From a virus: a DNA stretch of 43,645 nucleotides. The notes under the pieces are model-generated. The model saw only the letters and a program-made list of their open reading frames with translations. It did not search any database and was not told the origin of the DNA. The stretch covers positions 1 through 43,645 of the IMG/VR virus record IMGVR_UViG_3300017971_000113; one strand, given 5' to 3'. This document shows positions 6,841 to 43,645 of this stretch, piece after piece (position 1 is the first letter of the stretch; every line of letters starts with the position of its first letter). The translations under genes were made by a program, and so were the position numbers.

Positions 6841-7861
6841 GATTAATTATATATTTACATTATCTGCTGATGGATATGATACAATTGAACTTGATGTTTC
6901 AAGTTTTTCATATAGAGCTACAAGCGAATCAAAAACAGGATCACTTGTAATAGAGGGGACTGACGATTCTGAATCTATATCTGAAAGAGCGGAAAATGGA
7001 ACGTTAACATTAACAAAGCGTAAAACAGGCGTAGATACTGAAATATTGACGGCAACGATCGATAATATTGATATTGTATATGGAACGACATCAAACACAA
7101 TAAATATGAATTTTACGTTCAATTTTTCTGGTTCGATACTTGGAAGCCCTCTGGTTATTGACAATCTTGTGAGTTATATGGAGTTAAGTGGCGGATCATA
7201 TTCTTTTAGATTGAGCGAAATACAAGACTATATACAGAACGGAATGTCTGTAGAATATGATTCAATTGAACGTTATATTGATGAGATAAATACTCAATAT
7301 AATGCGGATAGTTTTGGATATGTCACATTAAATGAAGGTGATACGGAAACAGAATCAGTCGGAACAACATGCACTTTTGAATTAGAAAATGGTGTTCCGT
7401 ATGAGAGCACTCTTGGATATTATGATTGTTATCAATATATTTGGACTCCTCCATTAATAGCGCCATGTCTTTTTTCAACGATAAAAAATTATGGATTCAC
7501 ATCAATAATAAAATCTCTTGATTTAAGAAGATTCCTTTATATAAAATATTTTAATTTTACGTTAGCCGAAGAATCGAATATTTCAATAAGCGTTTCAAGC
7601 GTCGGTTTTAGCGATATGGTAGATGATTGGTATTCCTGTGATGGCCAAACAGGAAAACTCGGATTTGAAGCTGTTCTTGTTAATGGAGAATATACCGCTT
7701 TTGAAGATTTTAATAATGACGCTTTTTTGAGATTCGGTGTAAATATTGAAAAAAATTTAACATTACCCGCGGGCATATACACGCTTGTTCTTGTAAATAT
7801 TACTTTGGACGATGATCCGGCGGTTTCATTCACAATAGATTATAGCTCCGCTGTAGTGTGA
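6833..7861 (+). CDS. Tail or baseplate structural protein (function unknown)
   Basis: ATG 6833 overlaps the upstream stop (the track uses GTG 6824). Lies in the tail module between the Dit-like gene and the larger tail genes. Confidence 0.4.
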   Translation: MTKINYIFTLSADGYDTIELDVSSFSYRATSESKTGSLVIEGTDDSESISERAENGTLTLTKRKTGVDTEILTATIDNIDIVYGTTSNTINMNFTFNFSGSILGSPLVIDNLVSYMELSGGSYSFRLSEIQDYIQNGMSVEYDSIERYIDEINTQYNADSFGYVTLNEGDTETESVGTTCTFELENGVPYESTLGYYDCYQYIWTPPLIAPCLFSTIKNYGFTSIIKSLDLRRFLYIKYFNFTLAEESNISISVSSVGFSDMVDDWYSCDGQTGKLGFEAVLVNGEYTAFEDFNNDAFLRFGVNIEKNLTLPAGIYTLVLVNITLDDDPAVSFTIDYSSAVV

Positions 7862-13344: not shown

Positions 13345-15111
13345 TTAAAATTTAATTTGTTTTAATTTTGAAAAAGAATTTATTATTAATTTTGTTTCTT
13401 TAATATAATAATCATAATCTAAATCATTTGGAAAATGTAAATCAAATAATGGGGCAGCGTTTACGGATTTCGGCACTCTGTTTCCATTTTTATATTCAAA
13501 ATTTCTGCCTTTTCCATCATAATACCATCTGCAAATTTTTCCAATCGATTCCCCATTAAAATACGCTCCTCCATTTACAGTCCTAATTGTTACAAATTTT
13601 GTTATATCCTTGCAATTTCTAATTTTTTCTTCAATCGGGGATTTATTTTTAAGATATTCTATTGCCGCTTCTACACAAATTTCATTAGTCGGATTTTTCA
13701 TAAAACCAGGTTTGGAATACAAGCCTTTTAGTTTTGTTTTACCGTCATCCGTGAATGCAATATAATTATTTACGTCTTTTTGATAAAATGCTCTGTAAAT
13801 CGTTTCCTCTGTATTAAATCCGGTATCTTTCTCCCATTGTTGGATGATTAAATTTATTTCTTCGTATCTATCCCTGGATTCATAAATCAAAATGCCATCA
13901 GTGTTGGCGCTTATTACATTTATTCCATTAAATCCCAAACGCTCGATCAACATCAGGAGCGCGAATTGTCCCGTTACTGTGACGTTTATAAATAGCTCTG
14001 GAGCATAAATATTTGAATAGATCGAATTTAATTTTCCAAAACATCCATTTATTGTAATTTTCAAACTATCGGCTGTTGATTTATCGCCTATTCTTTTTGC
14101 GTCAAGCCTTTTTTCAACAAGTCCCCTATATACATCAATAAATTTTTTCCCTAATTGAGGCGGGTATAAATCTCTGTTCAAAATGATCGATGGATAATAG
14201 CTCGCAACATCTCTATCGATCAATATTTTATTTTTATCTGATTTTATAGATCTGCTTTTTTCGATGCTGTGGAGTCCACCAATACCGGTAGAATAATGAT
14301 TTCCAAAAACTTGAACCGTATCGTTATTTTTTTCTTTAAAGAAACCAGGCAATCTAATTTTTCCATTATCGATTTCAAAATCAAATTCTTCAAATTGACA
14401 ACATAATATTTCTAAATCAAAATGTTTAAATTTCATCCATTCGGGCCGAATAAATTTTACTTTTTCAGGATGGTCAATCTTTTTTGATTTTATGCCGATT
14501 TCACTCAAAACAACGTTTTCAGCAATTTGAGCATCGGATTTAGATCGCAAATCAACGCCATATTGTTCAGATAAAGAAACTCTCAAATCAATTGCTTTTT
14601 TAAGTTTATTGAATAATTCATAAGTTATTTTACAATCATTTAAGCAATACTCCTTTAGTACGGAATATTGATTTTTTTCTATTACCGATTCAGGATCTAT
14701 TGGAAGTTCTTGTAATTTTGGATAATGCATTCGAGCAGCATATAATTTAAGTCCTGCGTGCCCGGGAGCCACTTCTTTTAAATCTATATGATTTAGTTCT
14801 AATTGAGGACAATCTTTTAAAATTTGCCAGTGCTTTTTCCCCTTTTTTATTATTTCATCCGATATCTTTTTTAAGTCTTCCAAAGAATTTCCGTGTATGA
14901 AAGCCTGAATGATCGGAATATCGTAATTTAAGCCGTTAAATGAAACAAAAAGCGTTTTTCGCATTTGTTCGTTTTTGAAAAATGCTTTAAGCTCATTCGG
15001 ATTATTTTTATCCTGTACGTATTCGAATATTCTTGTGTTTCTTCCATCATCGGGATCATAAAAAACCGCGAGAAAATAATTTATATAACATTCAATATCG
15101 AATACGTACAT
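13345..15111 (-). CDS. DNA polymerase, family B, with 3'-5' exonuclease domain
   Basis: Exonuclease motifs FDIE, FNGLNYD and YCLNDCKITYE. Polymerase motifs DVASYYPSII (DxxSLYPS), KITINGCFGK (KxxxNSxYG-like) and ANTDGI (DTDS-like). Confidence 0.85.
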   Translation of the reverse strand: MYVFDIECYINYFLAVFYDPDDGRNTRIFEYVQDKNNPNELKAFFKNEQMRKTLFVSFNGLNYDIPIIQAFIHGNSLEDLKKISDEIIKKGKKHWQILKDCPQLELNHIDLKEVAPGHAGLKLYAARMHYPKLQELPIDPESVIEKNQYSVLKEYCLNDCKITYELFNKLKKAIDLRVSLSEQYGVDLRSKSDAQIAENVVLSEIGIKSKKIDHPEKVKFIRPEWMKFKHFDLEILCCQFEEFDFEIDNGKIRLPGFFKEKNNDTVQVFGNHYSTGIGGLHSIEKSRSIKSDKNKILIDRDVASYYPSIILNRDLYPPQLGKKFIDVYRGLVEKRLDAKRIGDKSTADSLKITINGCFGKLNSIYSNIYAPELFINVTVTGQFALLMLIERLGFNGINVISANTDGILIYESRDRYEEINLIIQQWEKDTGFNTEETIYRAFYQKDVNNYIAFTDDGKTKLKGLYSKPGFMKNPTNEICVEAAIEYLKNKSPIEEKIRNCKDITKFVTIRTVNGGAYFNGESIGKICRWYYDGKGRNFEYKNGNRVPKSVNAAPLFDLHFPNDLDYDYYIKETKLIINSFSKLKQIKF

Positions 15112-15127
15112 TTTTTAATCCTTTTTA

Positions 15128-15748
15128 TTAAAATGGAATTTCTCTATCGTTTGATGGGTCATTGTTTGTATCAATATCATCAAAAACATCCTCTGGATTT
15201 GTTCGTTTAATATTTCCTCCAAAAGCATCGCCATCAGATAATTTCTGAAAATGAATAATATCAAACACAACGCCAGGTTTAAATCCGCTATTTCCACCGC
15301 CATAAGCGCGAGCGCGCACTTGCGCCCTTCCGATACACCCACCATAAATTTCTTCCGGATCAATAATAGGATTTCTTTCAGCATCGACAATGCCAACTGG
15401 ATTAATAGAGCTAAATTTCATATAAACTTTCCCTGGATATCCCTCATACGCAACACCATCAATATTTATTTTTTCATCTCCATTTTTAAGTACAAAATTA
15501 AAAAAAGTATCTTTGAATTTTCCATTATCATTACTGAATCTTGACGGGATGTTATCCCCGAATCTTTCAATCCCTACTTCTTTAATAGCCGATATGAATT
15601 TTGAAAAATCAGTATTTCGATCAAAAATAGCATCGAGACTGTATTTTGGTTTTTGATCTTGGAAAGATCTTTTTTCAAAAAGCGCCGGGAATGAAACTAC
15701 AAAAGGCTGGGTAATAAACGGCTTTGTTCCATAAGTGTTTGATTTCAT
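15128..15748 (-). CDS. DUF2815-family phage ssDNA-binding-like protein
   Basis: FVVSFPALFE...KYSLDAIF at the N-terminus and IYGGCIGRAQVRARAYG...HFQKLSDGDAFGG at the C-terminus fit the family pattern. Sits next to the DUF2800 nuclease. Confidence 0.7.
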   Translation of the reverse strand: MKSNTYGTKPFITQPFVVSFPALFEKRSFQDQKPKYSLDAIFDRNTDFSKFISAIKEVGIERFGDNIPSRFSNDNGKFKDTFFNFVLKNGDEKINIDGVAYEGYPGKVYMKFSSINPVGIVDAERNPIIDPEEIYGGCIGRAQVRARAYGGGNSGFKPGVVFDIIHFQKLSDGDAFGGNIKRTNPEDVFDDIDTNNDPSNDREIPF

Positions 15749-15776
15749 ATTTATTCTCCTTTTCTGTTTTTTCTGG

Positions 15777-16913
15777 TCACCTAAAAATTTTTTTCGCTTG
15801 TCTGATTAAACTGATTGCCGGACGTTTATCATTTTCAGGCGCGATAGTCGGCTTTCCATCGGGCGTGAATACAAAATCATTAAAATCTAAATCCGGTTTA
15901 GATTTGAAAAGCTTTTCCAGGTCAGCGATTCCTTTTGGTTTATAATCAAAAGCTTCATCGCCGAAAATTTTTTCAAGATCTGTTTCTTTTTCCGATTTTA
16001 ATTTCCTATTTGTTTTCGACATCACCAACTTATATCCAGGAATATTACCGCCTGATTCCATAAATTCCAAGCATTTTGAACGACAAGTTTTAGCCCATTT
16101 GGAATAGACTGATTCAAAAAGTAGAAATTTAGCCATATCATCTGGACCAAACGTCTCTGGATTCGGCATTGTTATTTGATCATCTTTGAATACTGCGATT
16201 GCTGAATTATAAGCAAGCTCTTTTATTGCAGGGCATATATGAGTGCAATTACAAAAATGATCGCGACAACCTACCCCTGGATTATATATCTCTGTTTCGC
16301 TCTCAACTTTTTCTATTATATCTTTAATTTTATTCGACCACTCGCTATGGAATAATGAAACATCTTCGATTTCCCATATTTTTAATTGATCTCCATATGT
16401 CGCTCTTGGCTGGAATATGATCAATTCAAGCCGTTTGCAGCATTCCAGAGGTGGATTTTCTCCGAGAATCATAATTGCATATGCCGCTAATTGCGGATTT
16501 TCAATCGGATCAACCATAACCCCTTTACCATATTTCAAATCGAAAATAGACCATGTACCCCCATAAATTTTAATCACATGATGGTCAGGAGTTCCGCTAA
16601 ATCCTTTATATATCCAATCGCCATCAACTTTTATTTCCGTATGCGCTTCGAACTGAGATTCATCCCTTGGAGTTCTTTCGTGGATGGCATCGAGATATAA
16701 CTGAACATTTTCAATAATTTCTTCTGGAGTCCGTTTTAATGCCATTTTATCCACTTCCCAAATTCGCGCTTTTAAACATTTCCCGGCGATATGATGCGCA
16801 CGAATCCCCTCAAGCATTCCCGGATTTGGTTGAGATTCCGGAATAAATTTTTCAAGTATCGCCATGCCTGGACAATGCATGTATCCCGCTAATTTTGAAG
16901 GCCGACATATCAT
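15777..16913 (-). CDS. DUF2800-family PD-(D/E)XK nuclease (Cas4-like, Fe-S Cys cluster)
   Basis: N-terminal RPSKLAGYMHCPG, core GTPDHHVI...FDLKYGKG, and C-terminal CRDHFCNCTHIC. Confidence 0.7.
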   Translation of the reverse strand: MICRPSKLAGYMHCPGMAILEKFIPESQPNPGMLEGIRAHHIAGKCLKARIWEVDKMALKRTPEEIIENVQLYLDAIHERTPRDESQFEAHTEIKVDGDWIYKGFSGTPDHHVIKIYGGTWSIFDLKYGKGVMVDPIENPQLAAYAIMILGENPPLECCKRLELIIFQPRATYGDQLKIWEIEDVSLFHSEWSNKIKDIIEKVESETEIYNPGVGCRDHFCNCTHICPAIKELAYNSAIAVFKDDQITMPNPETFGPDDMAKFLLFESVYSKWAKTCRSKCLEFMESGGNIPGYKLVMSKTNRKLKSEKETDLEKIFGDEAFDYKPKGIADLEKLFKSKPDLDFNDFVFTPDGKPTIAPENDKRPAISLIRQAKKIFR

Positions 16914-17592: not shown

Positions 17593-19368
17593 ATGGCATC
17601 TAATAAATCAAAAGCAATGGAATTTTTGCAAATCACGGGAGCTTATCTTTTTCCATCCATATTCAAAGATGGGGAACATAAGCCGCTTATAAAATGGAAA
17701 CTAAACAGTTCAAATGATTACAGACAAATTGAAAAGTGGGCGGAAAAATGGCCTGATTGCTATTTTTGCGTGAATCTCAAAGCATCAAAAATGTCGGCAA
17801 TTGACATTGACGATAAAAATCAAAAAAACGGGTCATTAAAATTCAAAAATTTTCTATCCGAAAATAAATTAGAATTTCCGGAAACATTAACGATTAAAAC
17901 GCCAAGCGGCGGATATCATCATATTTACTCAGGATCTCACATATCAGGAAAACTGATAAAAGGGGCTGTGGATTTACCCGGAATGATTCCTGTTCCCGGA
18001 TCGATTGTTCCAGGGAAAGGGAAATATTCAATCGTGAACGGGCGGCATGAGCTTGAAAATATCCCGGAATGGTTAAAAGCTTTAGAAAAGCCAAAAATCG
18101 AAAAAAAGGAATATTCCGGCATATTGGATGATCCGGCAAATATCAATACTGCAAAACGTTTTCTTTTAGTATGCTCCCCGGCGATTGAAGGTCAAAACGG
18201 CGATATTACTACTTTTAAAACCGCCTGTAAACTAAAAGATTTGGGCTTATCCGAAGAAAAAACATGCGATTTAATGATTGAAATATTTAATCCTCGATGT
18301 TTACCGCCATGGAATATTCGAGATATTCGACTGAAAGTGAAAAATGCTTTCGAATATGGCGAATTGCCAATTGGAGTATCGGCTATCGGATTCGAAGAAA
18401 TTCAAAATGACTCCCCCCTGGAAAAAGAAAAAAAATCAAAAACCGGTTTTCAACTCATTCGAATAGGAGAACTTTTAGGAAAAATTGAAAAAATTGAATG
18501 GCTGATTGACGGTTTTTTTGAAAAAAAAAGCCTAAATATGATTTATGGGGAAAGTGGCGCGTATAAATCATTTTTAGCCGTTTCAATCGCGTGTAGTATC
18601 GCTTCAGGGACTAAATGGTATGGGCGAGATATAGAGCAAGGCCCGGTTGTTTATATCGCGGGAGAGGGACTTAGAGGCATTCCTAAACGAGTTCAAGCTT
18701 GGGCGGAAGAAAATTCAGTTAACGGAGCTGATATAGATATGTATTTGAGTAGTTCATCGGCTAATTTACTTGATCCTGAAAACGTGATGCAGATAAAAAA
18801 ATCAATTGCTGCTGTTAATCCGGTATTAATCATTTACGATACCCTGGCGCGAAATTTCGGCGGCGGCGATGAAAATAAAACAGCGGATATGGTGAAATTT
18901 ATAAATGAGGTCGATTCAGTCGGCGTTGAATCCGCTTCTTTATTAATACATCATACAGGATTGATGGAAAAAGATAGGGCGAGAGGAAGTAGCGCATTAA
19001 GAGCGGCCCTTGATTCTGAATTTCGCATGTCGTTTAATTCGCAGGCGGATAAAGAAAGCAACAAACCGCTTTTAATTTTGACAAATACGAAAATGAAAGA
19101 CTCGGAAAAAGTCGAAAATATTTATTTTGAAAAGCAGATTAGGATTTTAGATTTTGGAAATATAATAGAATCAGTAGTTTTGAAAAAAATTGACCAGGCA
19201 GATATAGACGATCAATTAAAAAATCTAATCATTGAAAATATGATGAACGGAATTTCGGATAGAAAATTATCCGAAAAATTCAATATGAACCGGCGAAAAA
19301 TCCGTAAAATTCGTGAAGACGCTATAACAAAAGGTTTTATTTCTGAAGATATCCATAAAGCCAAATAA
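17593..19368 (+). CDS. Bifunctional prim-pol primase / RepA-DnaB-like helicase with a C-terminal HTH-like tail
   Basis: Prim-pol motifs AIDIDD and SGGYHHIY, a PriCT-like middle region, Walker A GESGAYKS, Walker B LIIYDT, and C-terminal ISDRKLSEKFNMNRRKIRKI. Confidence 0.85.
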   Translation: MASNKSKAMEFLQITGAYLFPSIFKDGEHKPLIKWKLNSSNDYRQIEKWAEKWPDCYFCVNLKASKMSAIDIDDKNQKNGSLKFKNFLSENKLEFPETLTIKTPSGGYHHIYSGSHISGKLIKGAVDLPGMIPVPGSIVPGKGKYSIVNGRHELENIPEWLKALEKPKIEKKEYSGILDDPANINTAKRFLLVCSPAIEGQNGDITTFKTACKLKDLGLSEEKTCDLMIEIFNPRCLPPWNIRDIRLKVKNAFEYGELPIGVSAIGFEEIQNDSPLEKEKKSKTGFQLIRIGELLGKIEKIEWLIDGFFEKKSLNMIYGESGAYKSFLAVSIACSIASGTKWYGRDIEQGPVVYIAGEGLRGIPKRVQAWAEENSVNGADIDMYLSSSSANLLDPENVMQIKKSIAAVNPVLIIYDTLARNFGGGDENKTADMVKFINEVDSVGVESASLLIHHTGLMEKDRARGSSALRAALDSEFRMSFNSQADKESNKPLLILTNTKMKDSEKVENIYFEKQIRILDFGNIIESVVLKKIDQADIDDQLKNLIIENMMNGISDRKLSEKFNMNRRKIRKIREDAITKGFISEDIHKAK

Positions 19369-19925: not shown

Positions 19926-22202
19926 ATGGACACATACAAAGATTTTTTAAGAAATAAAAATAAAAAATTGCCGGATTTCGGATTTGATATAGATCTGAAT
20001 TCACTTAATCCTGCTCTATTCGACTGGCAAAAATACATTGTCAAATGGGCGATTAAAAAGGGAAGATGCGCGTTATTCGAGGATTGCGGGTTAGGTAAAA
20101 CAATACAATCACTTGAATGGGTCACAAAAATAATCGAAAATCCAGGAAGTCATGGATTGATAATAGCCCCCCTTGCTGTAAATCGTCAAACAAAAAAAAT
20201 AGGGGATGAGTTTGGATACGAAGTCAATATTTGCAGATCCGAAGATGATATAAAAAATGGAATAAACATATGCAATTACGAAATAATGCATAAATTCGAT
20301 TTTAAAACAAAAGAGTTTATTGTTCTTGATGAATCAAGCATCATAAAAAATGAGGCGAGTGTATATTTATCATTTTTGCTCGATAATATATCAAATATAA
20401 AATACAGATTGTGTTGCACTGCGACTCCAAGTCCGAATGATTACACAGAACTTGGAAATCATGCTGAAATATTAGGTGTATGTACACGCGGCGAAATGCT
20501 CGGAAATTATTTTTACCACGATTCCGGCAATACATCAAAATGGACTTTGATGGAATGGTCAAAAAAAGATTTCTGGGATTGGCTTGCCGATTGGTCAGTC
20601 ATGATAAAAAAACCATCAGACATAGGTTTTTCTGATGATAATTTTAAACTTCCAAAATTAATTTATCATGAACATATAATAAAAACAGATATTAGAGACT
20701 ATGAATTGTTTAGGGAAGAAGTCAAAAGCCTTTCGGATAGAAGGGATGAAAGAAATAAAACGCTTGAAAAAAGAACAGATTGTGCCAAATCATTGATAAA
20801 AGAAGATGAAAAATGGGTTTTTTGGTGTAATTTTAATCCTGAAAGTGAAATGTTATCTAAAAAAATAGACGGATCAATCGAGCTTAAAGGCCCACAGAAA
20901 GCAGAATATAAAGCGAATGTGATGAATGATTTTGCAAACGGGAAAATAGACGTTTTAATCACAAAGCCGAGAATATCAGGATTTGGGATGAATTTCCAAA
21001 TATGCAATAACACTTGTTTCACAATACCATCGGATTCATATGAAGAATGGTATCAGTCGATACGAAGGTTTTGGAGATTCGGAGCAAAAGAAGATGTCAA
21101 CGTTCATATGATAATAACAGATAGAGAAAATCCCATAATAGAAAATTTAAAAGAAAAAATGAGGAAAAACGAAGAAATGGCTATCGAAATGGTTAAAGCG
21201 ATGTCAGAAAAAACAAAAATAGAATTAGGCATTAGCGGCAAAATTATTGTTAGCGATTATAAAGAAAAAATCGTAAAAGGCGAAAATTGGACAGCGTATT
21301 ATGGGGATTGCGTCGAAATATCTTCAAAACAACCTGACAATAAATATGATTTTTGTATTTATAGCCCCCCGTTTGCTGAAATTTATAGATATAGCGATAG
21401 CGAGAGGGATATGGGCAACTCGAAATCATATCATGAATTTTTCGAACATTACAATTTCTTAGTAAAAGAGCAATTTAGAACTCTGAAGCCTGGAAGACTT
21501 GCGGCGATCCATTGCATGAATATACCCGCAATGAAAGAGCGCGATGGATATATAGGAATAAAAAATTTTAGGGATGATATAATAAGAATACATCAAAAAA
21601 ACGGATTCATATATCATTCAGAGATCGTAATACCAAAAGATCCATTAATCGAAAGCCAAAGAACACGTGCTAAAGGATTGGCTCATAAAAACGTTATAAA
21701 AGATTCGGCTTGCTTGAGACAAGCCCTGCCTGATTATTTATGTGTTTTTTATAAACCTGGTAAAAATGAAATTCCAATATCACATCCAGATGGCTTCACA
21801 AAATATATAGGGATTGAATGCGAAAATCCAGGTGGAAAATATGATGAAGAACATTCAAAAAATAGAAAATCACAATATTTGTTTAGAAGGTATGCCGAAT
21901 CTGTTTGGTGGGATATCAGACAAACAAAAACTTTAAAATGTAAAAACGCTAAAGACGATAAAGATGTCAAGCATCCTTGCCCGCTACAATTGGACGTAAT
22001 CGAAAGAGCGATTTATTTATGGTCAAACAAGGATGATTTGATCGTATCGTGGTTTGGAGGAATAGGCTCTGAGGGTTATGTGGCTATATCAAACGATAGA
22101 CGATGTGAAATAGTGGAATTAAAAGAATCTTATTACAACGAACTCATAAAAAATCTTGAAAGGGCAGAAAAAGCACATAAACAACTTGAATTACCAATGT
22201 GA
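19926..22202 (+). CDS. SNF2-family helicase fused to a beta-class DNA (N6-adenine or N4-cytosine) methyltransferase
   Basis: Helicase motifs DCGLGKT, VLDESS, CCTATPSPN and ISGFGMNFQ. The C-terminal half has IYSPPF (motif IV) then HPCPLQ...WFGGIGSEG (motif I). Confidence 0.8.
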   Translation: MDTYKDFLRNKNKKLPDFGFDIDLNSLNPALFDWQKYIVKWAIKKGRCALFEDCGLGKTIQSLEWVTKIIENPGSHGLIIAPLAVNRQTKKIGDEFGYEVNICRSEDDIKNGINICNYEIMHKFDFKTKEFIVLDESSIIKNEASVYLSFLLDNISNIKYRLCCTATPSPNDYTELGNHAEILGVCTRGEMLGNYFYHDSGNTSKWTLMEWSKKDFWDWLADWSVMIKKPSDIGFSDDNFKLPKLIYHEHIIKTDIRDYELFREEVKSLSDRRDERNKTLEKRTDCAKSLIKEDEKWVFWCNFNPESEMLSKKIDGSIELKGPQKAEYKANVMNDFANGKIDVLITKPRISGFGMNFQICNNTCFTIPSDSYEEWYQSIRRFWRFGAKEDVNVHMIITDRENPIIENLKEKMRKNEEMAIEMVKAMSEKTKIELGISGKIIVSDYKEKIVKGENWTAYYGDCVEISSKQPDNKYDFCIYSPPFAEIYRYSDSERDMGNSKSYHEFFEHYNFLVKEQFRTLKPGRLAAIHCMNIPAMKERDGYIGIKNFRDDIIRIHQKNGFIYHSEIVIPKDPLIESQRTRAKGLAHKNVIKDSACLRQALPDYLCVFYKPGKNEIPISHPDGFTKYIGIECENPGGKYDEEHSKNRKSQYLFRRYAESVWWDIRQTKTLKCKNAKDDKDVKHPCPLQLDVIERAIYLWSNKDDLIVSWFGGIGSEGYVAISNDRRCEIVELKESYYNELIKNLERAEKAHKQLELPM

Positions 22203-28923: not shown

Positions 28924-29639
28924 TGAAGATAAAATGCAAGTACGATAAGCTGGTTAAAATATCGGAATTGACAACACTTAAACATCCTCGAAATTATAAT
29001 CAGCACGGAACAGAACAAATAGAGCTATATGCCGAAATAATAAAAGATCAAGGTATAAGAAGACCAATAAGAATATCTAATTTTTCTGGATTTATTACGG
29101 CCGGTCACGGTCTTTTGAAAGCTGCCGAAAAATTAGACTATAATGAGTTACCGGTTGAATATCAGGATTATGACTCAGAAGAGCAAGAGCTTGCTGATAT
29201 TTTGGCGGATAATAATCTTGCTCGACTCGCTACAGTGAATCGTCAAAAGCGGGATTCAATAATCCATGAACTTGTTGAAAAAGGCGTTGACCCAAAAATA
29301 ACCGGAATTTCAAAAGTAATCATGGACGATATTCTCGGAAACGTTCAAAAAATTGATCTTACAGCTTCTGAATTTTTCAATAACCGAGAAGGCTTTATTG
29401 ACGACGAATCATCCGATCTGGATGAATTTGAATCGCAAGATATGATGGATATGTCATCAGGAAAAATAAGAGAACTCGAAAATAGTAAAAAGCGGCCAAT
29501 TGCAATTGTACTCGATAGAAGCCAGTATGAAAAATGGGAATCGTTAAAAAAGACAAAATTTAAAGTTAAGGGTGATACATTAGCGATTCTTAAAATTATT
29601 GAATATTTTGAAACTTTGTTGGAGGAGGATAAAAAATGA
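28923..29639 (+). CDS. ParB-like nuclease domain protein
   Basis: ATG 28923 (the track uses GTG 28893). N-terminal ParB/Srx-fold pattern ISELTTLKHPRNYNQH..IELYAEIIKDQGIRRPIRIS..GFITAGHGLLKAAEKL, with an acidic middle region. Confidence 0.6.
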   Translation: MKIKCKYDKLVKISELTTLKHPRNYNQHGTEQIELYAEIIKDQGIRRPIRISNFSGFITAGHGLLKAAEKLDYNELPVEYQDYDSEEQELADILADNNLARLATVNRQKRDSIIHELVEKGVDPKITGISKVIMDDILGNVQKIDLTASEFFNNREGFIDDESSDLDEFESQDMMDMSSGKIRELENSKKRPIAIVLDRSQYEKWESLKKTKFKVKGDTLAILKIIEYFETLLEEDKK

Positions 29640-30862
29640 TAGTACCGTTTTGGGGCGAATTGTTATTCCATAAAATTCCGTTAGAATTGAGTTTTAACCC
29701 TTGCTCTCATGGATGCGCTTATTGCTTTAATATTCTGAACGGAATGAATAAACACTGCGATATGGCGCCGTTAACAAAACTGTTGACTGATTTCAACAAC
29801 AGAGAAACGTTTGTTGCCAAATTACTCAAAAAAGGATATCCGGTCTTGATGTCAAACCGATCGGACCCATTCGCAAGGAGTAATTATGAGCAGGCTTTAT
29901 CAATCATTAAATTGATGAGTGAAGTCGGAATTCCAATGGCGTTTCAGACAAAAGGCGGATATGGAATAGATGAAGCGCTTGACATGTTGGATAAGCCAAC
30001 ATGTTGGTATATAACAATTACACATAGCTCTGATCAAACTCGTAAGATTTTTGAACGTAACGCCCCGGATATTGATAGTCGTTTCACATTATGTGAAAAA
30101 TTAAGATCAAAAGGACATCGAGTACAAGTCGGAATAAATCCTATGGTGAGGGAATGGTTGGGTTATAATAAACAGCTTGCATCTTTTATTGAACGATTAA
30201 AGAATTCAGGCGTGGAAGGCATATGGGCCGAAAAGATTCATTTTAATCGAAAACAGATTAAAAATATATCGCCAAAAGTCAAGATTGCTTTTGGAGATAT
30301 CATAAACGAAGGCTTAAAAAACCCGTCCCCAGAATTAACAGAATATATCGATACTCTTCAATCTATGATTAAAGATTCAGGTATTGTTTTCGGATCATCC
30401 TATAATTGGAATACAAAATATTGGGATGTTTTTGACGAAACATACGATACGCTTTTTCCGAATACGATTGATTTTATCAGACATTGTTTTAATTCATTGG
30501 AAGACGATACTGTAATCGCTTACTCATACTTCAAGCGCCATATAGTTGACAAATTCCCCAAAGGGCGATACAATATAAAGAATTATATACTAAATAAGGG
30601 ATTTCGGATGAATAAAAAATACGCTTTAAAATCTCAAATGACCTTTGATGAGATTATGCGTATAATGTGGTTTGATCCGAAAGCGGGTAAAATGGGGATA
30701 GGCGTAAAAGAATGGTTCGCCGTTTATGGTTGCGAGATAACTAAAGATGGATTTCTTAAAAAACCTGTCTGCGAGGATTACGGAATGCCTTATTATATGT
30801 TCAGGCGCTCTGAGTTTAACTCAAGTGTCGTTGATTTATATGGAAAGGAGGTACTATTATGA
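29636..30862 (+). CDS. Radical SAM enzyme, SplB-like (COG1533 'DNA repair photolyase' type)
   Basis: CSHGCAYC is a CxxxCxxC motif in an NP-C-x-HGC-x-YC context. Downstream NRSDPF, FQTKGG, ITITHS and VGINPMV match the SplB-like TIM-barrel strand pattern. Confidence 0.7.
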   Translation: MIVPFWGELLFHKIPLELSFNPCSHGCAYCFNILNGMNKHCDMAPLTKLLTDFNNRETFVAKLLKKGYPVLMSNRSDPFARSNYEQALSIIKLMSEVGIPMAFQTKGGYGIDEALDMLDKPTCWYITITHSSDQTRKIFERNAPDIDSRFTLCEKLRSKGHRVQVGINPMVREWLGYNKQLASFIERLKNSGVEGIWAEKIHFNRKQIKNISPKVKIAFGDIINEGLKNPSPELTEYIDTLQSMIKDSGIVFGSSYNWNTKYWDVFDETYDTLFPNTIDFIRHCFNSLEDDTVIAYSYFKRHIVDKFPKGRYNIKNYILNKGFRMNKKYALKSQMTFDEIMRIMWFDPKAGKMGIGVKEWFAVYGCEITKDGFLKKPVCEDYGMPYYMFRRSEFNSSVVDLYGKEVLL

Positions 30863-34058: not shown

Positions 34059-35459
34059 ATGGTTTATATATTAAATATGATTAATAAAATAATCAGATAT
34101 AGGCCGTCAAAAACTATGAGCGAATTTCATAAATGCCGATCACTCGCTAAAGGATTGCGCGGCCCAATAGGATCTGGAAAATCATCCGCTTGTTGCATAG
34201 AATTGTTTTCAAATGCTGTCGAGCAAGAGCCGTTCAACGGAATCCGTAAAACAAAAATGGGAATAATCAGAAATACATACGGGGAACTAAAAACAACTAC
34301 GATCAAAACATGGCTGAATTGGTTTGGTGATTTGACAAGAATTGTTTATTCCTCTCCAATTATAGGCATTATGAATTTTGATTTACCTGACGGAACAAAA
34401 GTTGAATGCGAGCTGGTATTCGTATCGCAAGATCGACCAAAAGATATCGCCCGCCTGTTATCGCTGGAATTGACGGCCGCCTGGATAAATGAAGCGAGAG
34501 AAGTTCCGGAAACGGCGCTTGATGTTACTGGAAGAATAGACAGATATCCGGATTTCAAAAAAGAAGTTGGAGCAACTTATCCTGTTTTGTTGATGGACAC
34601 TAATTCATGCGATGTTTCGTGTTGGTATCACACATATTCTGAAAAATTAAAGCCCGAAGGATATACATTTTTTGATCAACCGGGCGCTTTAATTCGAACA
34701 ACCTACGATAAAGAAATATCTTATGCGCCAAATCCTGAAGCAGAGAACATAGAAAATTTAAAATCAGGATATGATTATTATTTACGTCAAATTCCAGGGA
34801 AATACATGGAATGGGTGGAAGTTTACGTCCTAAATATGTATGGATCAGGATCACCGGGGAACAGAATTTATCATAATTATTCGCCATTAAATCATACCGA
34901 AAAAGAATTTGATCCTGGATTGCCGATTCATTGGACGAATGATTTCAATTTTGCCCCATTATCATCTGCGATAATACAGATTGATAAAGATGAAAATATA
35001 TATTGTGTTGACGAGATTATAATATATCATGCAGATCCGTTGCAATCTGCTATTGAATTTGCGGATAGATATAAAGACAATAAAAATCTATCGATACATA
35101 TTTACGGCGATGCATCAGGCCATGTCGGACAAAAGCACGGCCAAATATCAAATTACATAAAAATAAGAAAATATCTTGAAGAGCAAGGATTTATAATTAA
35201 GATGCATGTTCCGCGTTCTAATCCCGGGATTAGGGACGGCCAGAATGCGGTACGAGCTAAAATATCTGATGCTGCGGGGCGTCGTTCTTTTTTTGTAAAT
35301 CAAAAAAAATGCCCGACTATCGATGAAGGGCTTATGACGTTGCAAACAAAAAAAGGATCGACGTTTTTGGAAGATGAACGGCTTGATAGTCAGCATGTTT
35401 TATCTGCCGTGAGATATTTTGTTTATCAGAAATTTCCGTTAAAATTTAAATTAAAATAA
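34059..35459 (+). CDS. terL: Terminase large subunit
   Basis: Walker A LRGPIGSGKS, Walker B-like LTAAWINEARE, and C-terminal nuclease-type acidic motifs (WTNDFNF, IHIYGDASG). Followed by the portal gene. Confidence 0.85.
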   Translation: MVYILNMINKIIRYRPSKTMSEFHKCRSLAKGLRGPIGSGKSSACCIELFSNAVEQEPFNGIRKTKMGIIRNTYGELKTTTIKTWLNWFGDLTRIVYSSPIIGIMNFDLPDGTKVECELVFVSQDRPKDIARLLSLELTAAWINEAREVPETALDVTGRIDRYPDFKKEVGATYPVLLMDTNSCDVSCWYHTYSEKLKPEGYTFFDQPGALIRTTYDKEISYAPNPEAENIENLKSGYDYYLRQIPGKYMEWVEVYVLNMYGSGSPGNRIYHNYSPLNHTEKEFDPGLPIHWTNDFNFAPLSSAIIQIDKDENIYCVDEIIIYHADPLQSAIEFADRYKDNKNLSIHIYGDASGHVGQKHGQISNYIKIRKYLEEQGFIIKMHVPRSNPGIRDGQNAVRAKISDAAGRRSFFVNQKKCPTIDEGLMTLQTKKGSTFLEDERLDSQHVLSAVRYFVYQKFPLKFKLK

Positions 35460-35473
35460 AAAGGTAAGGAAAA

Positions 35474-36880
35474 ATGACTGAAATGACAATTGAGGAATTA
35501 AAATCAACAGACGATAGATATAAGGCGAATGCGGCAAATTGGAGATTCAATCAAAGCGCGTATAAAGGCTACGAATCTCTTATTAAGGATGAGGGAATAT
35601 TAAGATATGACGCCGATAAAAGAGATAGCGAGGATATAGAATATAGGGAAATGGCGGCATGGGGGGATGATCTTTCAGCGTGGACAGTTGAGCTATTTGC
35701 TGATTTTGTCGGTTCAGTTCCATTTATGGAAGATTTTTCGCCGTTAGTTGATGATTGGGCGTTTGAGCGTTTTATGCGAGATTGTGACATGGATGAAACT
35801 GATTGGGGAGTATTTTGGGATAATGCGAGACGAGCGGCATATACGACCGGCATGCAAGGCATTCTTGTTGATAAAGGAAAATCAACTGGAAATGTAGCAA
35901 TGGATAAGGAAAGAGGCGTTTATCCGTATCTCGTTTCATTTAGTCCTTTGGCGATATTGAAAACAGAGCGCAAAAGAGATGAATACTCTAATAGACCATA
36001 TCTATCATATCTTAAATATGTTGAATCTGACGGAACATATAAGATATGGACTACGGAAGAATGGAAAGCGTATAAAATAATAGATGAGGAAGTCGTTTTA
36101 ATTGATGCTGGAGAAAATCAAATTGGAGAAATTCCGTTTTTTTGGTTTTATAATCTGAAATCATTGGAAGACAAATATTTAGGAAAATCAGAGATTCAGG
36201 GTATATCTGGTATTGATGCATCAATTATTAGTGAAACCGCCGATGTGGCCCAAGTTTTCCGAGCTGCCGGATTTCTTATGCTTGCCAGGCCTTCATCCGC
36301 TATTCGGGAAGATCAGGATTTAGAAGTCGGCCCAAATGTTCAAATCGCTTTTGACGCCGATAATCCCGGCGGAACAAGGCCGTTTTGGTTAACTCCTGAT
36401 GTTCAAGGGCCGGTTAATGCGGCCATGACTATAATAGAAAAGCAGGAAATGGCGGCAATGCGAAAAAAGAATTTATCTTCTGTATTCGCAACAATGGCGA
36501 AAGATGCTCGTTCAGCCGAATCGATATCCCAGGCTTTTAGATTTCTTGAAAGTTCATTGAATAGAAAAGTAAATAACGAGCTTGAAGCGAGGAATAAAGC
36601 GATTTTATACTGGCTAAAATGGCAAAATCAGTCAGATTTATATAACGGTATATCCATAACTCATCCGAGATCATATAATATTCAAAGTCTTATTTTAACT
36701 ATACAAGATGCCATGACTGCAAAAACAGTTGTAAAATCATCGGATCGTTTTCAAAAATATATAGATAAAATGATTGTAAAAAAAGTATCACCAGACATTT
36801 CACAATTGGAGTATAAAGAAATTGCGGATGAAATAGATTCGGCCGAAATAATAAAACCTGATGCCCAAATAGAAACATAG
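35474..36880 (+). CDS. Portal protein
   Basis: 468 aa, immediately downstream of TerL. Call is by size and position. Confidence 0.7.
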   Translation: MTEMTIEELKSTDDRYKANAANWRFNQSAYKGYESLIKDEGILRYDADKRDSEDIEYREMAAWGDDLSAWTVELFADFVGSVPFMEDFSPLVDDWAFERFMRDCDMDETDWGVFWDNARRAAYTTGMQGILVDKGKSTGNVAMDKERGVYPYLVSFSPLAILKTERKRDEYSNRPYLSYLKYVESDGTYKIWTTEEWKAYKIIDEEVVLIDAGENQIGEIPFFWFYNLKSLEDKYLGKSEIQGISGIDASIISETADVAQVFRAAGFLMLARPSSAIREDQDLEVGPNVQIAFDADNPGGTRPFWLTPDVQGPVNAAMTIIEKQEMAAMRKKNLSSVFATMAKDARSAESISQAFRFLESSLNRKVNNELEARNKAILYWLKWQNQSDLYNGISITHPRSYNIQSLILTIQDAMTAKTVVKSSDRFQKYIDKMIVKKVSPDISQLEYKEIADEIDSAEIIKPDAQIET

Positions 36881-36887
36881 AAACATC

Positions 36888-36916
36888 TTGACATTATAAG
36901 TATGGCAAATTATATT
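36888..36916 (+). promoter_or_regulatory. Sigma70-type promoter TTGACA-N17-TATATT driving the moron genes
   Basis: Exact -35 at 36888-36893, a 17-nt spacer, and -10 at 36911-36916. The sequence after the -10 (TATATTATTATTATCA) resembles that of the 19751 promoter (TATATTTTAATTATCA). Confidence 0.6.
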
Positions 36917-36953
36917 ATTATTATCAATAATAATTAGAAACGGGGTATAATTT

Positions 36954-37364
36954 ATGGAATTAGATAAATATCTGACGCCGATAGAAGCTGCGAAAATACT
37001 TGGAGTATCAAGATCCGCCATTTATCGTAGAATTAAAAATACGGATTTGGAGTACATCAAGGTAAGCTGTCGATATTTAATACATGAAGATGAAGTAAAA
37101 AAAGGTTCTCTTTCGAACATTAAGCCGGGCGCGGGTAATTTTGAACGAAAAAAGAAAGAACCGCCTTCATTTCCGCCTGTAACATATAAGGCCGGAAAGA
37201 ATGATGGCATTATAAAGAATGAAGTGTTGGATATGCGTTCAAAAGGACTATCTTATAGAAAAATTGCCGAGAAATTAAATATCATGGGAATCGGCAATAC
37301 TAAAGGCGGCTATTGGTCAGTGTGCTCTTTACATGCGTATTTAAAAAGATATGAGGCGATATAA
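36954..37364 (+). CDS. DNA-binding protein: excisionase/MerR-type HTH plus a recombinase-accessory-like HTH, no catalytic domain
   Basis: LTPIEAAKILGVSRSAIYRRIKN at the N-terminus. C-terminal GLSYRKIAEKLNIMGIGNTKGGYWSVCSLHAYLKR. Confidence 0.55.
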   Translation: MELDKYLTPIEAAKILGVSRSAIYRRIKNTDLEYIKVSCRYLIHEDEVKKGSLSNIKPGAGNFERKKKEPPSFPPVTYKAGKNDGIIKNEVLDMRSKGLSYRKIAEKLNIMGIGNTKGGYWSVCSLHAYLKRYEAI

Positions 37365-37735
37365 TGAAAAAAATAATTGTGTTTTTTGTTTCTATTTGTT
37401 TTTCTGTTAATTGTTATGGGATAGATCTTAACTCAAAAACTGAATCTCAGATCAGAGACGATATAAGGATTGAAATATTTAAGAGATATAAGGATTCATC
37501 GTCAAGCGTGCATGTATATTTAATTGACGGGAACATTAAAAGCTATAAAGAAATATTGAATTATTTAAATAATGGCCCAGTCGGATTAATAGATAATATA
37601 GATGAAAATACGGTCAAACATTCAAAAAAAGAATTGATAAAAATAATTGATCTGCACTATCCTATTTTCAATGTCATGCTATATATGTATAAATCTGAAA
37701 TGAAATCTTTTAAAAAACTACATGAGGATAAATAA
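37364..37735 (+). CDS. Secreted or exported small protein (signal peptide)
   Basis: MKKIIVFFVSICFSVNCYG, then a hydrophilic domain. ATGA-type overlap with the upstream gene. Confidence 0.55.
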   Translation: MKKIIVFFVSICFSVNCYGIDLNSKTESQIRDDIRIEIFKRYKDSSSSVHVYLIDGNIKSYKEILNYLNNGPVGLIDNIDENTVKHSKKELIKIIDLHYPIFNVMLYMYKSEMKSFKKLHEDK

Positions 37736-38024
37736 TGCCAAAGAAACTTGATAGATGAGTACAGAATTTAATCCGCCAAGGGCGGCGGAAAAATAGCGCA
37801 TGGGCTATATGTGTGTCTTCTATAAAAAAATCTAAAAATAAAAAACGCAAAAAAAATTGAAACAGAAAACAATTGAATTGGAACGAATAAAGCTTGCATA
37901 TGAAATAGCGCTTTATGATATTTTTATTTTTGGAGATAAGCTATCATCTGAAAAAGCTTACAACGTGCTTTTAAAAATCGGCGGTGAATCTACATTTGAT
38001 TACCTGGAAAAATTTTTAAAATGA
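37735..38024 (+). other. Interrupted coding-like stretch: ATG-7 codons-TGA-33 codons-TGA, then a -1-frame ORF without an ATG that ends at ATGA overlapping the next gene
   Basis: Read codon by codon. In-frame TGA at 37756-37758, hairpin CCGCC-AAG-GGCGG at 37773-37785, A8 run at 37849-37856, and the -1 frame open from 37842 to 38024. Confidence 0.5.
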
Positions 38025-38956
38025 ATCCAATAGATATATATAACGCATCGGACGATGTGATTGAAAAGATAATCCGAGATGTGGAGAAACAGCTCCATTT
38101 TGGCGTAAAACAAATCGGAAAAGATATTATTAACGCAAGCGCCGAAATTCTAATAATAAAAAAAGGCGTTATCGATTCTGATTTATCTGATGCTCAAAAG
38201 TTGCATGAAACGGCGCTTTTATCGGTTGATAAAAACCTTTCCCCAGTGTCCAAAGCAATTAATAATGGGATGAAAAACGTTGATGCCGAGGCAAAAAAAC
38301 AATTCTCCAAACTTGAAATATTTCAAGACGTTGATGCTGAAAGATCCGATTTGGAATTATTAAAAAATCAGGCGACAGATACATTTTCATTTATAGGCGA
38401 TGAATTCGCGGATAACGCAGGCCGTTTATTTTATGACGCTGTTTTAACAAATATGACTTACGATCAGTTTCTTGAAAAATTTGATCAACTTTTGATCGAA
38501 GGATCAAGCGAATATGGAAAAGCTCTTGATGGTTATGCCGAAACTTATATCCGTGATTCATATATGAAATATTATCAGGATGTTCATAATCTTAAAGCCG
38601 ATATCGCCGGATTAGATGATTTTCTTTATTATGGTAATATTATGGCATCATCCCGCGCATGGTGTATTGTTCGAGTAGGCCAGACTTTCACAAAAAAACA
38701 GATAGACTCATGGGATGGCGATAGTTGGAAAGGTAAAAGTTGCCATCCGATGATTTGTAGGGGCGGTTATAATTGTCGCCATCATTGGCGGCCTGTTCGA
38801 AAGGAATGGATTGAAGGCGGCGTTATTAATGTCAATTCAATATTTGAAGAGAAGCCCGAACAAATGACAGATTCATTGCGGGCTGATATCATTAAAGAAT
38901 CAAAAGTTATTTCTACGTCTATGTATGATAAACTTTTGGATAGAGAGATTATTTGA
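38021..38956 (+). CDS. Head morphogenesis / minor capsid protein (Mu F / SPP1 gp7-like)
   Basis: C-terminal WCIVRVGQ...CHPMICRGGYNCRHHW resembles the Phage_Mu_F signature. Positioned after the portal. Confidence 0.65.
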   Translation: MNPIDIYNASDDVIEKIIRDVEKQLHFGVKQIGKDIINASAEILIIKKGVIDSDLSDAQKLHETALLSVDKNLSPVSKAINNGMKNVDAEAKKQFSKLEIFQDVDAERSDLELLKNQATDTFSFIGDEFADNAGRLFYDAVLTNMTYDQFLEKFDQLLIEGSSEYGKALDGYAETYIRDSYMKYYQDVHNLKADIAGLDDFLYYGNIMASSRAWCIVRVGQTFTKKQIDSWDGDSWKGKSCHPMICRGGYNCRHHWRPVRKEWIEGGVINVNSIFEEKPEQMTDSLRADIIKESKVISTSMYDKLLDREII

Positions 38957-39241
38957 TGCGGAATTTATAGCCTTCCTATCATTCTTGCCTCCAATTTATT
39001 GCACAATATAATTGTATTTGTGCAATTATATGAAAATTGACAAAAAACGACCAAAAATGATCATTGCCAATATCATTTATGGATGAATCGCATTAAAAAT
39101 TCTTATCGTCTTTTATCACCATCGAATATTTTTTTTCAAAAATTGAGATAAAAGTAAACATATGACGGATTATGTTGACATATTACTTTTTTTGTTGTAG
39201 TTATATAATAATATGATAATTTTAATAAATAGGTTGCAAAA

Positions 39242-43498: not shown

Positions 43499-43645
43499 AT
43501 GGCTACAAGTTCAAATGCAATGATAAAAATCGAAACGTCTTCGACTGCGTACACTGCCGCTCAAATGACAGACCAAGGCGCACATGATGTATTTAAAATC
43601 ACTGACGTTGATGAGTTTTCCGGTGACCCGGATATTGAAGTACAC
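43499..43645 (+). CDS. 5' end of the major tail protein candidate (continues at base 1)
   Basis: ATG 43499 preceded by AAGGAAAAAAAA. MATSSNAMIKIETSS... runs off the window in the same frame as 1..996. Confidence 0.6.
   Translation, partial: MATSSNAMIKIETSSTAYTAAQMTDQGAHDVFKITDVDEFSGDPDIEVH
43523..43645. repeat. Terminal direct repeat, copy 2
   Basis: Identical to 1-123. Confidence 0.9.

Follow-up and report, generated by a model that had tools for sequence, protein, structure and literature searches.

A TGA codon that interrupts a very small gene in the head module of a tailed phage is, judging from sequence comparison, probably decoded as selenocysteine (Sec) rather than serving as a stop. 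The stretch analysed, referred to here as the window, is the IMG/VR virus record IMGVR_UViG_3300017971_000113 at its full length of 43,645 nucleotides, and the small gene occupies positions 37735–37860 of its plus strand, with 41 codons plus stop reading MPKKLDR-[UGA]-VQNLIRQGRRKNSAWAICVSSIKKSKNKKRKKN, as delimited by homologues, a profile search and a hidden Markov model (HMM). The in-frame TGA is codon 8 (37756–37758) and coincides in the family alignment with the first of two invariant Cys positions, the second of which, invariant throughout the family, is the TGT of codon 26 (37810–37812); after the first TGA the frame stays open for 33 codons until the TGA at 37858–37860. The ATG at 37735 overlaps the stop of the 123-codon gene directly upstream (TAATG) and, as read from the sequence, has a Shine-Dalgarno motif, GAGG, 7 nt to its 5′ side (37724–37727), a motif that also precedes the gene start at 37364. 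The original prediction, made from the letters alone, had described this interruption, a GC hairpin 3′ of it and a change of frame at a run of eight A residues, and on re-reading all of these sequence features were where it had placed them. Of the explanations it offered, UGA meaning Sec with a hairpin resembling a bacterial Sec insertion sequence (SECIS) is the one that has gained support, from the alignment with Cys and from recurrence of the combination of TGA and hairpin elsewhere.

What is the gene, if its TGA is disregarded? A tblastn search with the conceptual product matched an annotated protein of 44 residues in Thermocrinis Great Boiling Spring virus, MPAKLDRCVRKVMRKGYDKQSAYAICSTSTGWKRAKGGKWVKRK, and protein searches returned P0001 (MPKKLDRCVKKLKKKGKKESSAWAICTDSIMNKKKSKNKKKKK) and P0002. 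From there a profile search at E ≤ 1e-3 extended the family to at least 559 protein clusters, every one of them called “hypothetical”, with the precomputed Pfam column empty for all 120 clusters listed. Among the best 120 members the position corresponding to codon 8 is Cys in every one, as it is in 98 of the 98 aligned short members, which answers directly what residue homologues have opposite the TGA. These best 120 members share Cys8 and Cys26 with a fixed C-x17-C spacing and a Lys/Arg-rich tail, and 98 of them are no longer than 60 residues, some of the others being of 61–129 residues; homologues with the same Lys/Arg-rich tail range from 37 to 60 residues. The family signature, MPxKLDRCV, G16, (S/N)A(W/Y/F)AIC and a basic tail, is matched by the window gene in all respects except that Cys8 is TGA. 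Of all 2,909 stop-to-stop segments in the window, those that the family HMM ranked first and second are the two on either side of the TGA, and they are colinear, the piece after the TGA matching HMM positions 9–40 (E 5.6e-11) and the piece before it positions 1–7 (E 0.018), so that exactly Cys position 8 is left for the TGA. By sequence, then, the small gene is a full-length member of a family of basic proteins, 41 residues long, whose only anomaly is a TGA for the first Cys codon.

The TGA is real. The same phage, at 99.9–100% identity, is present in ENA ERZ27256783, ENA ERZ27256798, JGI 3300028840 and JGI 3300017963, and a 316-nt region that includes both the TGA and the A8 run is identical base for base in these four assemblies, which come from four samples and two pipelines; hence neither feature is a read or assembly error. 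Nor is TGA reassigned in this phage, which uses the standard genetic code. The stops of its long open reading frames (ORFs) are TAA in 26 cases, TGA in 15 and TAG in five, and the normal use of TGA as a stop (15 of 46) agrees with what the original prediction had said of it. An alternative code, with TGA for Trp or Gly, was rejected on these same 15 of 46 and on the lack of other interrupted genes, a scan of long ORFs having found no second TGA-interrupted gene in the window. Long standard-code ORFs are also present in the other TGA-bearing contigs described below.

Between 37772 and 37789, RNAfold places a hairpin, UCCGCC-AAGGGC-GGCGGA, which is a candidate bacterial SECIS: 18 nt with a 6-bp stem and a 6-nt loop that starts 19 nt after the UGA, and an energy of −10.4 kcal/mol. 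The register noted earlier, CCGCC-AAG-GGCGG at 37773–37785, 14 nt after the TGA, is also available, the preferred pairing of UCCGCC with GGCGGA being shifted from it by 3 nt. This is not what the surrounding sequence would be expected to yield at random. In a genome of 35.4% G+C, a 16-mer of the hairpin has 14 G+C of 16, and only five loci in the genome, this one included, reach at least 14 of 16. The stem is spelled in rare codons, CGC (7.1% of Arg), GGG (16.7% of Gly) and, twice, CGG (3.7%, the rarest for Arg), while AGA, which makes up 50% of the genome’s Arg codons, is used at codon 7 just before the TGA. Cys-form homologues have Lys-rich, AT-rich sequence at the site of the hairpin, and a comparable one is present in only three of 34. 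An intrinsic terminator at this place was considered and rejected, there being no U-tract on either strand, and a search of Rfam gave no family at the gathering threshold, local hits being at chance level.

Is the combination peculiar to one phage? Public collections (IMG/VR, metagenomes and genome contigs) were scanned with a degenerate DNA pattern for the family in which the codon of interest was fixed. At codon 8 the IMG/VR scan found TGY, the Cys codons, at 51 loci and TGA at two, counts of TGA-bearing relatives being lower bounds since the pattern fixes several residues, which also makes conservation of the N-terminus in these hits partly a matter of ascertainment and is to be held against the Sec proposal. 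The metagenome scan added four further true members with TGA at codon 8, and the distinct genes of this type number seven, the window gene and those at the loci L005, L006, L058, L060, L062 and L068. A scan for TGA at codon 26, intended as a control, gave four hits in IMG/VR, and three Aquificae hot-spring virus contigs (L074/L077, L075 and L076) have their TGA at the second Cys, MPEKLDRCVRKVMRKGYTKQEAYAI-TGA-AKSTGWVRGPGGRWINKKAKKRKKK. Each TGA form is open to a stop 38–60 codons from its start, within the length range of the Cys forms. In IMG/VR no case was found of TAA or TAG at codon 8, of TAA or TGA at codon 23 (Trp/Tyr), from which a stop is a single mutation away, or of TAA or TAG at Lys-4, and from these empty controls the family’s in-frame stops are confined to TGA and to the two invariant Cys codons. 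The genome-contig scan, covering both TGA and TGY forms, yielded only Cys forms in metagenome-assembled genomes (MAGs) and one chance match. A recurrent chance match of the type MPHKLDK-TGA-..., outside the family, was met at L069 (Ruminococcus bromii), L059, L061 and L066 and shows the false-positive rate of the pattern.

One of the Aquificae forms is in GenBank BK013345.1, an Aquificae Conch Spring virus, where the gene falls in an unannotated gap between coding sequences that end at 1137 and start at 1303. There are two copies near the ends of that record, at 1151–1303 (L078) and 7059–7188 (L074), differing by three synonymous changes, and they may represent a terminal repeat or collapsed population variants. 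The paper describing these Aquificae viruses does not mention the small gene (PMC7689252).

Every TGA form has a hairpin whose loop begins 19–29 nt after the UGA. It is GGCCA-GUC-UGGCC in L006, L058 and L062, AGGCCAA-GGG-UUGGCCU in L060, UCGCACC-GUUCA-GGUGCGA in L068, AAGUCGAA-GUC-UUCGGCUU with an additional outer stem in L005, and CUGGGUC-AGGG-GACCUGG in the Aquificae forms (L074–L077). The four different stem sequences among the hairpins of codon-8 forms suggest that several lineages are involved. In the Aquificae clade the coding consequence is visible, the Cys relatives having GKGG where the TGA forms have GPGG, with the Lys-to-Pro codon change supplying the 3′ arm of the stem. The folding z-score of the 51 nt downstream is −2.5 for TGA forms versus −0.44 for Cys forms (Mann-Whitney p = 5e-4, a value to be read with the relatedness of some TGA forms, and so the non-independence of the samples, in mind). 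The published model of the bacterial SECIS requires a loop of 3–9 nt, an upper stem of 4–16 bp, a G at the first or second position of the loop, a distance of 16–37 nt from UGA to loop and a minimum free energy (MFE) at or below −7.5 kcal/mol (PMC13188914). Seven of 11 TGA sites conform to it strictly, as against one of 71 Cys-codon sites; a loop G is present in 10 of the 11 TGA sites scored, and the window is the only exception, its hairpin lying within the model for loop size, stem, spacing and energy and departing from it solely in the loop G.

Translation continues past the TGA in two other lineages. In the Aquificae clade the ratio of nonsynonymous to synonymous polymorphism (pN/pS) is 0.03–0.19 downstream of the TGA compared with 0.10–0.14 upstream, and in the clade of L006, L058 and L062 it is 0.10–0.46 downstream; since changes 3′ of the TGA are mostly synonymous in these two multi-member clades, the region is translated there. 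Re-initiation after the UGA was rejected, the next codon being GTA, GTT or GTC in all TGA forms but one. This family has three features by which new selenoproteins are recognised computationally (PMC13188914): Cys/Sec pairs, an element resembling a SECIS, and homologues with TGA in other genomes. For the family as a whole, Sec decoding is on these sequence grounds very likely.

For the window gene itself confidence is lower, though Sec remains the probable meaning of its codon 8, the reduction being due to the host not having been found, the single genotype, the atypical loop and a modest z-score. Several observations thus have to be set against the proposal. Neither form of the window loop, AAGGGC or AAG, has a G in its first two positions, a deficiency to be viewed alongside the report that a subset of bona fide SECIS elements fail the consensus model (PMC13188914), and the folding z-score of 60 nt in the window against dinucleotide shuffles is only −1.64. 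The hairpin of the L006 clade is weak (−6.2 kcal/mol) and falls outside the strict model on energy only. All available copies of the window gene are of one genotype, selection being measurable only in the other clades. A tRNA scan of the window revealed no tRNA genes, tRNA(Sec) and suppressors included. Sequence searches of PHROG, NCBIfam, Pfam and PDB gave no relative for the family, to which no function is assigned. A host for the window phage was sought via capsid relatives, cluster members, related contigs and the literature on the samples, and was not found. The nearest cultured capsids are those of Vibrio siphophages at 34% identity, and the closest relatives, with capsid identity of 64–73%, are all phage-sized metagenome contigs; according to literature traced by sample identifiers, the source samples contain Hydrogenedentes and Deltaproteobacteria MAGs. 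Sec decoding is confined to about one in five of the bacteria sequenced (PMC1794560). The hosts of the codon-26 forms are Aquificae, from matches of clustered regularly interspaced short palindromic repeats (CRISPR; PMC7689252), and Aquificae are listed among the selenoprotein-containing phyla (PMC1794560, Table 2).

How do other interpretations fare? One is that the gene is a recent pseudogene, in which a TGY-to-TGA nonsense mutation has struck a dispensable accessory gene and the sequence beyond it is as yet undecayed. The gene is within a variable block that a related phage with a 73% identical capsid fills with other genes, all copies are of one genotype, an open frame of 33 codons has a chance expectation of 7% and the hairpin loop is non-consensus, each of which is compatible with recent loss. 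Yet a decaying gene would have had to come by a G+C-rich hairpin in rare codons at the canonical distance, a structure with a counterpart in so few Cys forms; no fewer than five other lineages have TGA plus hairpin, and both clades in which selection can be measured show it to be purifying 3′ of the TGA; and no nonsense codon was ever found at the three control positions, of which two are a single mutation from a stop. A pseudogene is for these reasons unlikely. The original prediction had coupled this option with that of a base-call or homopolymer error, and the two parts have parted company, the error being excluded by the four identical assemblies and the pseudogene countered by the rare-codon hairpin, with the single genotype still to be reckoned with. 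That the true sequence is TGT or TGC, or that the A run is really A9, has nothing but the prior plausibility of homopolymer errors to recommend it, and given the agreement of four samples and two pipelines over 316 nt its probability is close to nil.

Another interpretation retains decoding past the UGA, or a function for its arrest, and dispenses with Sec. Either the hairpin assists read-through by a standard tRNA, a near-cognate Trp or Cys tRNA or a host suppressor, or UGA and hairpin together act as an attenuator for the coupled genes 3′ of them. Translation beyond the TGA in two clades would fit insertion of any residue, the window loop is without the SelB-type G, and the ORFs downstream are linked by TTGA and ATGA without a good Shine-Dalgarno sequence. 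However, the stops are always TGA, always at an invariant Cys, and always have a hairpin loop 19–29 nt away, which is the signature of Sec and not of read-through in general, and a suppressor tRNA was found neither in the window nor in those parts of ten further contigs with TGA forms that were retrieved. Read-through by another tRNA, or attenuation, is accordingly quite unlikely.

The A8 run (37849–37856), which is of the same length in all assemblies and encodes Lys and Asn in the basic C-terminal tail, raises the possibility of an altogether different type of recoding. In it a programmed −1 slip, ribosomal or transcriptional, would fuse the small ORF to a 55-codon orphan ORF, giving a 96-residue product. 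A_AAA_AAT in the zero frame is a possible slippery heptamer from which a shift to −1 would enter the TTG frame that is open to 38024, and some family members are 61–129 residues long. Against this, 98 of the best 120 members stop at 60 residues or fewer, each with the same Lys-rich tail, none of the longer members has an extension like the 55-residue ORF, and no structure follows the run (MFE −5.9 kcal/mol, z +0.28). Nearly all members of the family finish in a Lys-rich tail with A-runs, and such runs follow automatically from Lys codons in a genome of this G+C content. As the family ends at 37860 no frameshift is needed, and slippage on A8, which had been put forward at the outset, does not hold up, homologues ending at this point with no matching extension; it is very unlikely indeed. 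What had been seen as a frame change is the ordinary TTGA overlap of the stop of one gene with the start of the next, a normal junction.

The 55-codon ORF (37857–38024, plus strand) starts with the TTG of that TTGA, was called as a gene in two Joint Genome Institute (JGI) assemblies, is unlikely to be open by chance (P = 0.008 for a 60-codon open frame), and ends with the TGA at 38022–38024 that overlaps the ATG at 38021 (ATGA). It was too pessimistic to suppose that conventional decoding would leave about 260 nt untranslated, since 168 nt are a separate ORF. No Shine-Dalgarno sequence is present for it, and from its junctions it probably depends on translational coupling. An exhaustive HMMER search of 1.84 billion representatives for homologues of it returned only itself and low-complexity eukaryotic stretches, these repeat matches in large eukaryotic proteins being treated as spurious.

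How might Sec insertion proceed here? The hairpin at 37772–37789 would recruit the host’s SelB–tRNA(Sec) complex, from a host that would need to possess the machinery, and UGA 8 would be read as Sec, yielding a product with a Sec8/Cys26 pair in place of Cys8/Cys26. Translation would then end at UGA 37858, where ribosomes could restart at the overlapping UUG of the 55-codon ORF. An AlphaFold2 model, built on a 98-sequence alignment, is a helical hairpin with helices at residues 3–14 and 19–37 and block means of the predicted local distance difference test (pLDDT) of 88–93 over residues 1–30; its antiparallel register would set residue 8 opposite residue 26. A Foldseek search with the model gave only non-significant helical-hairpin matches (E above 0.7). 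Most plausibly the Sec8/Cys26 pair would form a selenenylsulfide staple, or a redox or metal centre, across the two helices, and the presence of Sec at either partner of the pair is what is expected of a redox-active or cross-linking pair. The sequence of the polybasic tail suggests a putative role in nucleic acid binding. Gene neighbourhoods are unrelated between phages and so provide no function from context. In one of them (L079, 3400–5001) the Cys-form small gene is directly 3′ of genes with zf-CDGSH (iron-sulfur) and TatA_B_E hits, an unusual setting which might bear on a redox or metal role. A subfamily represented by L007, L016, L035 and L046 of IMG/VR and by P0119 has a longer acidic helix and a second, C-terminal Cys motif, examples being RGCGCQKKK, DCGCHKKK and KCGCKNKR, and this hints at metal binding or extra cross-links in that subfamily.

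A more elaborate proposal is that within the head module UGA and SECIS act as a translational gate governed by selenium or SelB. Through the TAATG, TTGA and ATGA overlaps the small gene would be chained to the 55-codon ORF and to the probable head-morphogenesis gene, and as the starts of the latter two (that of the gene at 38021 included) have no or only a weak Shine-Dalgarno sequence, ribosomes would get to them efficiently only if codon 8 had been read as Sec. This is a rather improbable extension of Sec decoding. If true, expression of the late genes would depend on the host’s selenium status or on its capacity to decode Sec, and Sec at either Cys would mean that phages have recruited the Sec decoding of their hosts repeatedly and independently.

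The setting is a complete tailed-phage genome of about 43.5 kb, circularly permuted, other assemblies of the same phage being circular permutations of it; positions 1–123 are identical to 43523–43645, a 123-nt terminal duplicate derived from assembly overlap. The large terminase gene (34059–35459) and portal gene (35474–36880) are followed, in order, by genes for a helix-turn-helix protein and for a protein of 123 residues whose N-terminus is hydrophobic and signal-like, then by the small gene, the 55-codon ORF and a 311-residue ORF (38021–38956, plus strand), 3′ of which are scaffold and then P22-type coat genes. From its position between portal and scaffold/coat and its C-terminal CRGGYNCRHHW motif, which we take to be the signature of head-morphogenesis proteins of the Mu F / SPP1 gp7 type, the 311-residue ORF is probably a head-morphogenesis gene; it had no match in Pfam or PHROG and no relatives in IMG/VR. 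The block from portal to this gene is the variable one (36954–38024 in the window versus 1664–2409 in L084), and L084, the relative with the 73% identical capsid and from the same samples, has in it two unrelated ORFs of 97 and 90 residues. A DNA search of 36900–39000 against 50,697 phage records showed no similarity. Elsewhere the window encodes a radical-SAM-like protein that is below the Pfam cut-off, a fused SNF2-helicase/DNA-methylase of 758 residues, and PolB-exonuclease-like, DUF2800 nuclease-like and primase-polymerase/AAA_25 proteins, for which coordinates are given jointly as 29636–30862, 19926–22202, 13345–16913 and 17593–19368. No integrase was among the window ORFs scanned, and no sign of lysogeny was seen.

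Sec insertion is documented for cellular genomes and a few animal viruses, the viral cases in eukaryotes including homologues of glutathione peroxidase in molluscum contagiosum virus and fowlpox virus. These too are virus-encoded and require the Sec-insertion machinery of the host, but they are captured host enzymes with a SECIS in the 3′ untranslated region, whereas the hairpin here is of bacterial type and within the coding region, and the product would be a phage-specific peptide of 41 residues (viral selenoproteins are mentioned in PMC6769590). The closer parallel is with bacterial selenoprotein genes, such as fdhF of E. coli. As in those, a UGA is present where homologues have Cys, a stem-loop in the coding region has its loop at 19 nt, stem, loop size and energy all conform to the published model (PMC13188914), and there are TGA-containing homologues in other genomes. 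It differs in that the gene is on a phage, which would borrow SelA, SelB, SelD and tRNA(Sec) from the host, in that the family is new to selenoprotein lists, in the lack of the consensus G in the window loop, and in Sec being placed at either of two partner Cys residues in different phage lineages. A full-text literature search found no report of a phage-encoded selenoprotein, and viruses do not come up at all in a review of the prokaryotic selenoproteome from 2026 (PMC13188914). The only phage–Sec link found in the literature is the predicted tRNA(SeC) gene of Basilisk-like Bacillus phages (PMC6145125). The link to the Sec system is shared, but there it consists of a tRNA gene with no selenoprotein gene, and here of a candidate selenoprotein gene with zero tRNA genes. 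On the protein side, disulfide-stapled helical hairpins (alpha-hairpinin-like Ole e 6, vicilin-derived peptides and conotoxin Mu8.1) have a two-helix hairpin with facing Cys residues like that predicted for the phage family, and were among the weak Foldseek matches, all non-significant; they are secreted eukaryotic proteins with at least two disulfides, unlike the phage family with its single Cys pair, polybasic tail and lack of a signal peptide. The mechanism, then, would be the known bacterial one, and what appears to be new is that a phage carries it, that this family of proteins is involved and that either of the Cys positions is used.

If the proposal is right, phages exploit the Sec machinery of their hosts for proteins of their own, and a widespread family of tiny proteins has a functionally critical Cys pair that has been upgraded to Sec/Cys in several lineages. 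Gene callers would be systematically missing such genes, the gap in BK013345.1 being one example. With 41 codons and an 18-nt hairpin, the gene would be a small natural system for studying what a bacterial SECIS requires, and its presence in a phage would be a marker predicting that the host of that phage decodes Sec.

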